Shown here: positions 38,287 through 48,757 of the stretch, one piece after another
How positions within the stretch are numbered: the stretch's first letter is position 1
Layout: every line of letters begins with the position of its first letter
Assembly: GCA_963666055.2 (NCBI GenBank)
Contig: CAXWPH010000015.1
Location: 768,001-832,000, forward strand
Source: Acidobacteriota bacterium
GTDB lineage: Bacteria > Acidobacteriota > UBA890 > WLXD01
DNA: 64,000 nucleotides
Direction of reading: 5' to 3'
Made by a program: the position numbers and the translations under genes
The notes under the pieces: model-generated
Databases searched by the model: none
Told to the model about the DNA's origin: nothing
Seen by the model: the letters and a program-made list of their open reading frames with translations, nothing else

Positions 38287-38823
38287 TCAGGCCGAGCCGC
38301 CCTGGGTGGTAAGCCGAGCCACGATCTCGTCGACCACGGCTTCCGCGCGTGCCTGGATCTCTTCGGCCGTTTGATCCTGGATCGGATGGGGTACGAATAC
38401 CGCATCGAGATCAGGGCGCCCCAGCCGGCTCGCCTGGATGCGGGCGGCTACTCGGAACTCGTCTGTGGCGATGGGAACCGTGGGAATACCTCGGCTCTCG
38501 AGCGCGACGCTGTCGTGCAAACTGCACGTCGTGCACGACCCTCAGTCAGCCAGTGCCTCGATAACTCCGTCGGCAAGGCCGAGCCGCTCCAGGAGCTTCG
38601 CCGGGGCGGGCTTGGTGTAGGTTGGCTTGGTCTCTCGGACGAAGTCCGACACCCCGTGGCGTTCGCGCAGCAGGTGCTCCAACCGGTCCAGGAGGACGCT
38701 GCCGCCGCGCTTGCTGATGTCCAAGAGCGCGATCGTCTTACCCTTCAGCTGGTCGAGACGCGGCGCAGCGGCCTGGGAGCTTTGAGCAGCCTCGTCGAGC
38801 GGACTTACCAGGATCTCTGACAT
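38287..38823 (-). CDS. UGSC-family selenoprotein (Sec94 at UGA 38542-38544)
   Basis: Track ORFs 38542-38865 and 38287-38520 are one frame: ...EALAD-U-GSCTTCSLHD...; SECIS-like hairpin follows. Confidence 0.85.
38512..38539 (-). promoter_or_regulatory. SECIS-like hairpin
   Basis: GTGCA-GTT-TGCAC apical stem with G-first loop 19 nt after UGA; also GTCGTGCA/TGCACGAC inverted repeat. Confidence 0.65.
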
Positions 38824-40532: not shown

Positions 40533-41138
40533 TCACCGGCCCGATTCCACCTTCTCGGCAAGTGGCGGCATGTCGGCGACGACATTGCGGAAACTCTGAC
40601 CTGACGGCTTCTTCGGACCGAGCCACGCCAGGCAGTGGGTGGCATCCGCGTACAAATCAGTGGGAAGAAACAGCGAACACTTGCGTCGCGTCCACAGGTG
40701 GATCCGCCCGTGACGATCGGCAAAGCTCAGCATGGCCTCGCGGATACCTGCCGCTAGTCGATCAGCCCCTTCGCCGGCGCGGAAGGTGCCCGCGAAGCGT
40801 TCGGTGCTGTCTTTGGTGTAGGCGCCCCGGTGGGTGATGCTGCCGATGAGCTGAGGAGTGTTGACCGGCATCACAACGGTCATTCGCAGCACGGCTCTTC
40901 GCTTGCCATCGATGTCCGGTGTGGGAGCGTTCACCAGCCCGGCCACGAAGGCCCGCGCGCCCTCCTGGCCCGAATGCCAGTCGGTTGTGCCCATGGAGGC
41001 TTTGGCGTGCAGCGGCTTGAGGCCGTGCCCGCCAGAGAGCACGACCCTGACTTGCCGGCGCGCCCGTTTGGCCAAAACGAAGGCGAGCCCCAAGGCCAGG
41101 ATGACGGTGGCCAGCGCGATCGCCATTGGTACGAGCAC
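40533..41138 (-). CDS. Hypothetical membrane-anchored protein
   Basis: N-terminal TM, open 201-aa ORF, no family recognised. Confidence 0.5.
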   Translation of the reverse strand: MLVPMAIALATVILALGLAFVLAKRARRQVRVVLSGGHGLKPLHAKASMGTTDWHSGQEGARAFVAGLVNAPTPDIDGKRRAVLRMTVVMPVNTPQLIGSITHRGAYTKDSTERFAGTFRAGEGADRLAAGIREAMLSFADRHGRIHLWTRRKCSLFLPTDLYADATHCLAWLGPKKPSGQSFRNVVADMPPLAEKVESGR

Positions 41139-41210: not shown

Positions 41211-42668
41211 TCAGAAGGGGATGATCGTCGAGACGGCGACTTCCGTCGGGGTTTCGAGCTTGAGGGTCAACTCCTTGTTGACCCAGTCGATTTCGATGGT
41301 GCCGTACTTCGACTCGGGCTTGTTGATGATGTGTCGGTCCTGCGTGGTGTAGGCAGAAACGTTGCTGCTGATTGCCCCGACCTGCCCGGTCGGAATGGTC
41401 GCTCCGGCGGGCGCGCATTGGCCCCAGGCGGCGGGGACGCCGTTCCCGTTGGCGTCCAACTGCGTGTAACACCATGGCGCCGTGCGGTCTGCCGTGGTGC
41501 AGCCTTCATAGGTCGTGCCCGCATGGCTGAACGGCAGTTTGCAGCGGGAATCGTAGGTTCCGTTGCCCTGCGTGTCGGCCCAAACCGGAAGGCGGTTGGG
41601 GCTCGGTACGTCTTCCGGGAAGTTCTGATCGAACCCGGACGCCGTCACTTCAAAGAAAGTCACGGCCGGCCCCTCCGCGGCGGAGGGCGGCGTCGTCTTC
41701 TGCAACAGTTCACCCCAGTGCTGATCCCCGGAGACAAAAATCACCAGCTTGGTCTTGCCGGCGTTGACGGCTTTCTGGGCCAGGCGTAGCAACCGTTCCC
41801 GCTCTGCCGGCATTTCGGCCCACGATTCGTATTCTGTCCCCGAATCGTTGGTCTCGTTGAGGTTGGCGATGGCAGCGTTGAATTCCACCCCGTCCCCGTA
41901 CGCGCAATAGTCGGTCAGAGGTCTGTCCCGATTGAGCGGCGGGAGCACTTGCGTGCCGGAGGCGATCAGGGTGATCTCCGAGGTCGCACTCATCTGTTGT
42001 TCCAGCCACGACCACTGATCGTCCCCCAGCATGGTGGAGACGGCGCCCTGACAGACGCCGTACTCGAGGAAGGTCGGGGAGCGATGGTAGCGTGCGTCGA
42101 GCATGATCACATTCACTCGATTGTGCTGCGCTGCAGACCCGAACAACGTGGCGTTGTAGACCCCAGCTTGCTCCCCGTAGCGGACATCGTCGGTCGGCAC
42201 GTCGAAATGGCGCAGGAACTCCAATTGGCTTTCCGAGCGCTTGGAATAGTTGTCTCCGACGTTGTTCTCACCGAAATCGTGATCGTCCCAGGTGGCCATC
42301 ACGGGTATACGCGCCTGAAGAAAAGGCCGATAGGTCGCGCCGTTCTTCTTGGTGTCGTAGGTGTCGCGCATCGCGGCCATGTCAGTCGTGTCGGCGTAGA
42401 CGTTGTCTCCGAGCCATAAGAACAGGTCGGGCTGCTGGGAGGTCAGACGGTCGATTGCCTTCCCGGTCGTGCCGCCGTCGTCGTGCCAGCAAGAGCCGAA
42501 GGAGATGGTCTCCAGATGGGACGAAGCGTCGGGCTGGGTGTGAGGCCTGACTCGCGAACACGCGGCCAAGCACATGGCCAGGACGACTGCCGAAACCGCC
42601 GCAGCCCAGAAGCGAATCGGATCGCCGGCTGAGCGAACAGGCCTGCTGGAACAAATCAAGGCGCTCAT
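41211..42668 (-). CDS. PhoD-family alkaline phosphatase lipoprotein with inserted fibronectin type II domain
   Basis: FGSC, WLGDNVYAD, TWDDHD, LDARY, SGDQH; FN2 pattern at 41415-41543. Confidence 0.88.
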   Translation of the reverse strand: MSALICSSRPVRSAGDPIRFWAAAVSAVVLAMCLAACSRVRPHTQPDASSHLETISFGSCWHDDGGTTGKAIDRLTSQQPDLFLWLGDNVYADTTDMAAMRDTYDTKKNGATYRPFLQARIPVMATWDDHDFGENNVGDNYSKRSESQLEFLRHFDVPTDDVRYGEQAGVYNATLFGSAAQHNRVNVIMLDARYHRSPTFLEYGVCQGAVSTMLGDDQWSWLEQQMSATSEITLIASGTQVLPPLNRDRPLTDYCAYGDGVEFNAAIANLNETNDSGTEYESWAEMPAERERLLRLAQKAVNAGKTKLVIFVSGDQHWGELLQKTTPPSAAEGPAVTFFEVTASGFDQNFPEDVPSPNRLPVWADTQGNGTYDSRCKLPFSHAGTTYEGCTTADRTAPWCYTQLDANGNGVPAAWGQCAPAGATIPTGQVGAISSNVSAYTTQDRHIINKPESKYGTIEIDWVNKELTLKLETPTEVAVSTIIPF

Positions 42669-42845
42669 TCGTTAGTGTCCTGTAACAGAGGTCGATTCGA
42701 TTACGGCATCTGTTCCGTCAGGGTAGTCGATCATGGTCGCAGTGCGATCCGTTTGTGCGGTCTGCAACCGAGGTCAACCCTCGATGGGTAAGGGAACTCC
42801 GCGGCGCCGCCGCGGGCCGAGCAGCAAACAACGGGACCGTCAGAT

Positions 42846-47527: not shown

Positions 47528-48757
47528 CTATTCCGCCGGCTCAATCAGCGGCGCAAGCGGCGTCTCGATCTTCAGCCGCGCGCTTTGCGGCCGGTAACAG
47601 ATCGTTTCGCTGCAAACCTGATAATCGACGAAGATACTCAGCTCGACCGGCGGTTGACCGTCGGCTCCACCGGACTCAGACGATCTCCATAGCTCGGTGG
47701 TTCCGGTGATCGGAACGGCGATATCGGCGACCTCCTGGTAGACGTTCAGCGTCACACCGAGAATCTCGAACTCTTTCGGCGTGGTCGGCGGGTAGGCCGG
47801 CTCGCCGATTCTCAGGCCACGAGCCGGTCGAACGTTGATCCTCGTCGGATAGAAACCGTCCGGGAGCGGCTCACCGTAGAGGTGAAACCCCTCCGCCAGC
47901 TCCAAGCGAACATGGAGTGTGTTGATGACCTCCAGTTTCAGATCCGCATCCGAGAGGAAGGCGGTGATCCTGACTCGGTCGTCCTGCTCGTTGGCTTGGG
48001 GCGACTCTGCGTGCAGCAAGACCTTCCCGAGGGCCTTGTCGAGGATCGTGCCGGCCGACTCGCGGGTTGCGTAGTGGCGACTGAAGAACTTCTCGGTGAC
48101 GATGCCGAGCTCGTCCGCAACGTACGTGCCCGGGAACGGGATCCCGTAGAAGTCGCCGGCTCGGGGATCTTCGGGGTCGATGAGGGTGTTGAGAATGCCG
48201 AAGCGTCGGATCACCACCGAGCCGACATCCGAGAGCAGGTCGTAGGTGATCCCGTAGCGGTCCGAAAAGCTCTTCAACGCCTCTTGTGGATCGTAGCTGA
48301 TGCCATAGATGCGGATCCCGGCCGCGTCGAACTCTTTGATCTGGTTTTGCAGCTCGACCAGCTGCGTCATGCAGTACGGTCACCAGACGGCGGACCGATA
48401 AAAGATGAGGACGGCCTTTTTCCCCGCATGGTGTTGCTGGAAGTCGATTGTCTGGCCATGCTGGTTCAGCAGGGTGAAATCGGGGAGTCGCTCACCGACC
48501 GCCGGACCGGTCGGGAAATCGGCCGAGCCAGGGTGCACGACGCCGGGATGGTCGATCGACACTCCGGCCTCTAGCCCGAGCTCGTCCACGAATGTGTTAC
48601 TCGGGTCGCTCACCGCATCGTGCGCGGCACGCAACGGTGTTGCCTCCTGAGACGGATTCGTCTTCTCTGACGACCCGGGCTCCTGCTGCGCACAGGCAAG
48701 CAGGGCGCTCAGAGCGATGACGGCCGTCGCAGTTGCTCGCTGCTCGATGAGCTGCAT
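47528..48757 (-). CDS. Lipoprotein peroxiredoxin-like (AhpC/TSA) selenoprotein with DsbD-N-like C-terminal domain (Sec126, UGA 48380-48382)
   Basis: In frame: FYRSAVW-U-PYCMTQLVELQ; LLAC lipobox; GFHLY...YQVCSETICY.P. Confidence 0.85.
48349..48365 (-). promoter_or_regulatory. SECIS-like hairpin
   Basis: GCAGCT-GGTCG-AGCTGC, loop begins 20 nt after UGA. Confidence 0.65.

Follow-up and report, generated by a model that had tools for sequence, protein, structure and literature searches.

Fibronectin type II (FN2) modules are commonly considered vertebrate specific, with exceptions among invertebrates (10.1101/2021.03.15.435234). In MMP-2 and MMP-9 the modules are inserted internally in the catalytic domain (PMC3927616), and in PDC-109 choline is held on W47 and W58 and phosphate on Y30, Y54 and Y60 (PMC2823774). 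Among PhoD phosphatases, the ligands C180, D207, D265, D266, N271, N272 and D436 of the Bacillus subtilis enzyme have been mutated, and phospholipase D of Streptomyces chromofuscus, a member of the PhoD family, acts on phospholipid (PMC4223295). CamPhoD of Cobetia amphilecti is a marine secreted PhoD with a fibronectin-named domain; this domain is, however, of type III, lies at the N-terminus and is unrelated to FN2 (PMC6950083).

No description of an architecture uniting PhoD and FN2 was found in searches of the accessible full-text literature. Fibronectin domains in the accessible portions of PMC6950083 and PMC9426491 are either type III or host FN2, the word 'fibronectin' is absent from those of PMC10907312 and 10.1101/2025.04.09.648040, and those of PMC6211748 and PMC3927616 describe no PhoD-FN2 protein. 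The FN2 lead offered by PMC1262709 was rejected as an accession misprint for WD repeats. Automated databases already label PhoD-FN2 proteins with fn2.

Here we present such a protein, encoded in a window of 64,000 nucleotides (the whole stretch of DNA that was analyzed) from the genome of an Acidobacteriota bacterium, G000. With moderate confidence we propose that it is an exported, likely membrane-anchored Fe/Ca phosphatase-phosphodiesterase in which FN2 forms a putative non-catalytic pocket for substrate retention. The gene and its parts are as follows.

41211..42668, minus strand: whole open reading frame of the PhoD-FN2 protein (P0001), 485 amino acids, from translation and Pfam
42558..42668, minus strand: predicted export signal, a hydrophobic helix and a lipobox-like motif with Cys37, read by eye
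41589..42515, minus strand: PhoD catalytic core, residues 52-360, from Pfam, ligand motifs and fold match
within 41589..42515, minus strand: metal ligands of the core, C60, D88, Y91, D128, D129, N135, N136, D315 and H317
42033..42080, minus strand: family-typical segment with near-invariant Cys206, from alignment A2
41829..41939, minus strand: insertion peculiar to the family, about 40 residues long and carrying invariant Cys255, from alignment A2
41388..41588, minus strand: whole FN2 insert, residues 361-427, including a lead-in that aligns with the FN2 lead-in of MMP-2
41415..41543, minus strand: FN2 module proper, residues 376-418 (C376, C390, C400, C418; W399, W415), from Pfam PF00040 and PDB matches
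41214..41387, minus strand: C-terminal strands completing the phosphatase beta-sandwich after the FN2 insert, from the model and an alignment with 2yeq that runs to residue 485
42673..42692, plus strand: lone MITE-end remnant lying 5 bp before the PhoD-FN2 start codon, from genome-wide motif matches

The enzyme core is clearly PhoD. Pfam PF09423 matches residues 69-321 at 60.4 bits against a cut-off of 27, and an AlphaFold model built on a 110-row alignment has a mean pLDDT of 94 and a pTM of 0.91. The predicted fold is a PAP-like beta-sandwich: B. subtilis PhoD (2YEQ) ranks first in Foldseek (E 1.5e-14) and, in a wide structural search, 2yeq reaches Z 30.3 (rmsd 3.1, 322 residues aligned), the next entry standing at Z 24.3; the rows listed in these whole-model searches are filled by phosphatases and include no FN2 entry, which they may mask. 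The seven mutated B. subtilis ligands map by motif, in order, to C60, D88, D128, D129, N135, N136 and D315, each kept in 48-49 of the 50 rows of the bacterial clade described below. Y91 and H317, assigned by motif, we take to be the remaining Fe ligands. By analogy with B. subtilis PhoD, the protein is probably an active phosphatase.

The model contains a hydrophobic helix at residues 20-37, ending at Cys37 in a lipobox-like motif. The motif recurs in the genus relatives P0002, P0003 and the copy of genome G001; P0004 and P0005 lack the Cys. From this signal, read by eye, we infer that the protein would be exported and lipid-anchored. In the orthologue from G001 (L084, G001:C178:1833-3272) the Trp codon of the catalytic WDDHD motif is replaced by TGA; this copy is either a pseudogene or an assembly error.

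The FN2 module is equally well defined. The preliminary description had placed it at 41415..41543 from the letters of the DNA, and the minus strand there encodes exactly the noted peptide. PF00040 matches over its whole profile (positions 1-42 of 42); against a cut-off of 22.2 bits, the full protein scores 28.2 and the module on its own 33.8. Among PDB chains the region matches MMP-2, MMP-9, PDC-109 and fibronectin, with a best E of 4.4e-10, and C376, C390, C400, C418, F380, Y387, W399 and W415 align with MMP-2 and PDC-109, bearing out the four-Cys pattern noted in the preliminary description. Since this is the only fn2 match in the genome and 14 control genomes have none, the match is not due to chance. 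The same description had the module inserted before the last PhoD strands, and the predicted fold agrees: strands 455-461, 466-472 and 477-484 follow an insert modeled with a pLDDT of 96-98. Modeled by itself from a 7-row alignment, the domain reaches a pLDDT of 49.

The four cysteines are kept in 48 of the 50 bacterial-clade rows (alignment A2). FN2 disulfides pair cysteine 1 with 3 and 2 with 4. One or two extra, degenerate FN2-like repeats precede the core in all nine gammaproteobacterial proteins printed; the first repeat has lost cysteines 2 and 4 together and kept 1 and 3 in 9/9, a joint loss that fits this pairing. GC3 is 0.81 in the module and 0.80 in the core, and dN/dS is 0.09-0.17 in the insert and 0.10-0.17 in the core, with dS of up to 0.87 between members of the genus. 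The module is under purifying selection and maintained. Together, the matching GC3, the low dN/dS and the high dS point to a gene that has long been resident.

The protein belongs to a distinct family. A homologue search gave 1042 matches, of which 120 were listed; among those listed, the relatives of the same genus are followed by a group at about 55-61% identity (Pseudoalteromonas, Microbulbifer, Thalassomonas, Gallaecimonas, Marinagarivorans and Tahibacter) and then by proteins of the same layout at 34-46%. At the latter level, or from a profile search, come members from the diatoms Synedropsis, Ditylum and Corethron and from the loricate choanoflagellates Diaphanoeca, Stephanoeca and Didymoeca. 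Once 11 incomplete sequences were left out of 125 family rows, FN2 was found at the same site, between the core and the last strands, in 105 of 114 complete rows and was absent from nine, none of them in the bacterial clade. These nine complete members indicate that the core does not need FN2. Cys206 is kept in 109/110 and Cys255 in 110/110 rows of alignment A2, a pattern in which Cys255 would be the disulfide partner of Cys206; short PhoDs break into two HMM pieces at the site of the roughly 40-residue insertion that carries Cys255.

Several members depart from this plan. The choanoflagellate proteins P0151, P0152 and P0159 join kringles and PhoD-FN2 in one chain of 1300-2600 amino acids, two of them with a Pfam M11 peptidase, and the FN2 of the Didymoeca protein is only partial. 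P0101, P0097, P0103, P0104 and P0163 are divergent members, three without FN2 and some with low-complexity Asn/Lys-rich ends; none of the five matched viral contigs. The P0056 clade is suspected to be crustacean. Outside the family, P0326, a trypsin-FN2 protein of Tigriopus, has modules in which the last Trp follows a long loop, as it does in the PhoD-FN2 family.

Against 355 stored modules, the query module scores 56-90 bits with the other bacterial family copies; the rest of the family reaches up to 58 bits, and modules from outside it no more than 46 bits; the best single solved animal FN2 domain, with slightly different query bounds, scores 26.6 bits. A homologue search with FN2 alone told little, since just 4 of its 79 candidates were close relatives. 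An atlas search, to be taken as a lead only, has a best match of 0.84 and an fn2 cluster that is mostly eukaryotic. A scan of genome collections returned 2 full-length matches in the best 80 of 591, the matches being to generic PhoD motifs, so that it yields no prevalence figure.

FN2 had been called rare in bacteria, and the counts agree. It occurs in 5 of 401 genomes of the phylum, all of one genus, that of the query (g1), and, above the cut-off, in 1 of 400 across Gammaproteobacteria; one genome of this class-wide sample went unscored, and its sole match is the genome on which the sample was centred. Within the genus of Pseudoalteromonas luteoviolacea, fn2 is present in 52 of 140 genomes, and all 30 loci fetched are PhoD-FN2. 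The gene is found in all four other genomes of the query genus (G001-G004, 76-91% identity) and in none of six genomes from other genera of its family; G001 and G002 have it in syntenic position, G003 and G004 elsewhere. Across phyla, members are known from Gammaproteobacteria, this Acidobacteriota genus and a Leptospiraceae bin. Viral carriage was considered and rejected: viral contigs held no relative, and one phage match was weak and confined to the core. Seawater and sediment contigs contain near-identical pieces or close relatives, and the sequencing runs that match best are labelled with coded organism names, not 'seawater metagenome'; no RNA run is among the listed runs that carry the sequence. 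An assembly chimera is ruled out by the four orthologues and by one contig of run X2, which may be the source sample of the assembly, that holds the stretch whole.

The neighbors of the gene within the window are not phosphate genes. Directly downstream lies a 201-amino-acid open reading frame (40533-41138, minus strand) with an N-terminal hydrophobic stretch; it is conserved in G001 and G002 and has no Pfam match. Two further, distant PhoD homologues, 25-27% identical, are encoded elsewhere in the genome (G000:C15:572315-573019 and C2:70264-70977), which also contains marker families that point to Acidobacteriota: TIGR03436 is matched 16 times above cut-off and TIGR03434 more than 30 times. 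At 38542-38544 (minus strand) an in-frame TGA stands in a UGSC-type motif, the frame continues past the stop, and NF041046 (UGSC family seleno-protein) is matched by the part that precedes it; this gene is likely a selenoprotein split by annotation. A second TGA at 48380-48382 (minus strand) links, in frame, the open reading frame 48380-48757 to a peroxiredoxin-like one at 47528-48370; a UxxC motif results, and the joined frames likely encode a second selenoprotein.

The proposed role of the protein follows from these parts. The gene encodes an intact PhoD of a distinct subfamily, in whose fold FN2 is inserted, and its product is predicted to be exported and likely membrane-anchored. The aromatic pocket of FN2 would then hold the enzyme on particulate or membrane-bound organophosphate, from which it would likely scavenge phosphate. 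A putative binding role is suggested by the kept Trp pair, by purifying selection and by the extra FN2-like repeats in Gammaproteobacteria. In the locus L002 a PhoA-like alkaline phosphatase (L002:2612-4276, below the curated cut-off) is encoded divergently from the PhoD-FN2 gene. A consensus scan for Pho boxes gave weak matches only, with none clear upstream in three gammaproteobacterial loci.

Our best single guess for the ligand, a tentative one argued by analogy, is a quaternary-ammonium head group such as the choline of phospholipids. W399 and W415 align with W47 and W58 of PDC-109 and are present in 48 of 50 bacterial-clade rows (two gaps) and in 43/60 and 49/60 of the other rows. The Tyr positions of PDC-109 fare differently: Y30 corresponds to H382, Y54 is absent and Y60 corresponds to Q417, although the Y30 position is Tyr in 36/50 bacterial-clade and 38/60 other rows. 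FN2 may direct the enzyme to choline lipids, as the preliminary description suggested, but only half of the PDC-109 site, the Trp pair, is kept here, without the phosphate-binding Tyr.

FN2 was excluded from every tree, leaving the core and the C-terminal strands. The set comprises a 164-row FastTree (125 family and 39 outgroup rows), two quick 69-row trees and a careful 42-row tree under LG+G4 (34 family and 8 outgroup rows spanning the clades, bootstrap not fully settled). The family separates from ordinary short PhoDs with full support in all four, 100/100 in the careful tree. Rows that group with the named bacteria form one clade (support 95, 96, 90 and 89/84), within which Tahibacter and P0035 are the sister of the query genus (97/90 in the careful tree). 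Separate phylogenies of the two parts had been suggested; the core-only tree gives one family clade, and FN2, compared by score in place of a tree, tells the same story.

The preliminary description had proposed a module derived from eukaryotes, of animal type. The whole PhoD-FN2 unit is common to bacteria, diatoms and choanoflagellates, and the nearest relatives of the module are the family's own copies, which speaks against both an animal source and capture of the module alone; the 'animal-type' label misleads. The gene has likely moved between kingdoms as a whole, not been freshly borrowed from animals. As fn2 in the phylum is confined to five genomes of one genus, the whole gene likely reached this genus by lateral transfer, and we infer another bacterium as the likely donor. 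The AU test does not fix the direction of the older exchange: it fails to reject a topology in which the bacteria branch as the sister group of the rest of the family (p 0.275), and a eukaryotic derivation of the bacterial copies is no more than a candidate history.

One history that would account for this distribution, less likely than not in our judgment, is assembly of the family in bacteria after an early FN2 capture, followed by passage to protists. All named outgroup rows are bacterial short PhoDs, and the AU result accommodates this history. The free tree, by contrast, puts P0158 (with kringles) and P0156 (with extra fn2) outside the bacteria and the rest (96/96), a placement that would nest bacteria within eukaryotes and for which FastTree flagged long branches; moreover, the bacterial clade is shallow and patchy, whereas the other rows are deep and diverse.

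A rather doubtful alternative is that the subfamily was assembled in a marine microbial eukaryote, in which FN2 would already have been a phosphatase-targeting module independent of collagen, that the whole gene then passed to bacteria, where it spread from phylum to phylum and FN2 multiplied, and that the Trp pocket grips choline to make a phospholipid-directed scavenger. If true, this would represent an enzyme transfer from eukaryote to bacterium and open a window on the role of FN2 outside animals.

Our proposal of a substrate-retaining pocket has to be weighed against two other views of the module. In the first, FN2 is a structural subdomain that packs on the edge of the beta-sandwich and stabilizes a secreted enzyme through its disulfides, with no ligand. 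In the model, which has a high pTM, the insert is as confident as the core, the module alone is modeled poorly (which may just reflect the shallow alignment), and the conserved Trp and Cys could be fold residues. We nevertheless judge a purely structural role fairly unlikely, in view of the clean loss of FN2 in the nine complete members and the N-terminal gammaproteobacterial repeats, which fit a portable binding unit.

The second view, improbable in our judgment, has FN2 bind collagen or gelatin and park the enzyme on animal matrix in the manner of MMP-2/9. These two proteins do supply the best PDB sequence matches, and the coded organism labels of the best-matching runs leave room for a host-associated source. 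But the PhoD-FN2 unit is also present in diatoms and choanoflagellates, a single module stands here in place of the three of MMP-2, near-identical pieces occur in seawater and sediment contigs, and animal matches reach about 27 bits per domain versus up to 90 within the family. Animal-matrix targeting, raised in the preliminary description, gained no positive evidence from the comparisons made here and leaves the protist members unexplained.

The possible IS-end scar reported at 42673 is real: the 20-mer 42673-42692 is the remnant of a MITE. Allowing 3 mismatches, the genome contains 41 matches to it, many of which form inverted pairs spaced by 170-280 bp. Elements of this MITE family in G000 have two end variants and come in two or more lengths, among them about 170 and about 275 bp, as at C12:302801-302972, C15:21860-22136 and C7:81153-81428. 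ISAzo13 (PF07592), the sole transposase family searched, gave no match in a search run without a positive control. No partner MITE end lies in the window. In a seawater contig 156 other letters replace 13 at 42675, and in two seawater runs of one study the replacement begins with the same end and belongs to a longer element. G002 is colinear at the scar and differs there at 6 of 20 positions; near the gene, none of the genomes G001-G004 matches the motif within 4 mismatches. The MITE remnant is younger than the gene and is not its carrier; since other members of the genus have the gene without the motif, two of them at another locus, the scar is uninformative on how the gene arrived.

Recent capture of an animal FN2 by the bacterium's own PhoD, helped by an upstream element, has next to no probability, since both the core tree and the architecture common to the family refute it. 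The MITE remnant 5 bp upstream speaks for it; against it, the insertion site is identical in bacteria and protists, module and core agree in GC3, dS is high among genus members that all have the gene, the other PhoDs of the genome are just 25-27% identical, and the window contains no second end of the element.

FN2 is seen here as a stable, selected part of a phosphatase common to bacteria and protists. With the cultured Pseudoalteromonas members it should be easy to study which ligands FN2 has outside animals, and if particulate or lipid phosphorus is the target of some marine PhoDs.

Among known systems, the protein shares with B. subtilis PhoD (2YEQ; Rodriguez et al. 2014, PMC4223295) the fold, the Cys-type Fe ligand and the Asp/Asn Ca ligands, but is only 19% identical, has no detected PhoD N-terminal Pfam domain and, in the model, no C-terminal capping helix, and adds the FN2 insert and the Cys-bearing insertion of about 40 residues. 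S. chromofuscus phospholipase D, of the Cys-ligand PhoD subfamily, is a precedent for a PhoD working on phospholipid membranes; the likeness is by description, not sequence, and lipid activity of the present protein is hypothetical. Short PhoD-like phosphatases of Bacteroidota, Planctomycetota and Verrucomicrobiota have the same core motifs at about 28-39% identity, yet measure about 330-360 amino acids, lack both FN2 and the Cys insertion, and are set apart from the family by the 100/100 branch. The FN2 of PDC-109 and the BSP proteins (1H8P, PMC2823774) is like the present one in its four Cys and in the W47/W58 pair; there, however, two tandem modules stand without an enzyme domain, whereas here one is embedded in a phosphatase and the residues Y30, Y54 and Y60 are not kept. 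MMP-2 and MMP-9 (1EAK, 1L6J) likewise hold FN2 within a catalytic domain, behind a similar lead-in, but the host enzyme here is a phosphatase and not a protease, with one module instead of three and a longer loop before the last Trp.
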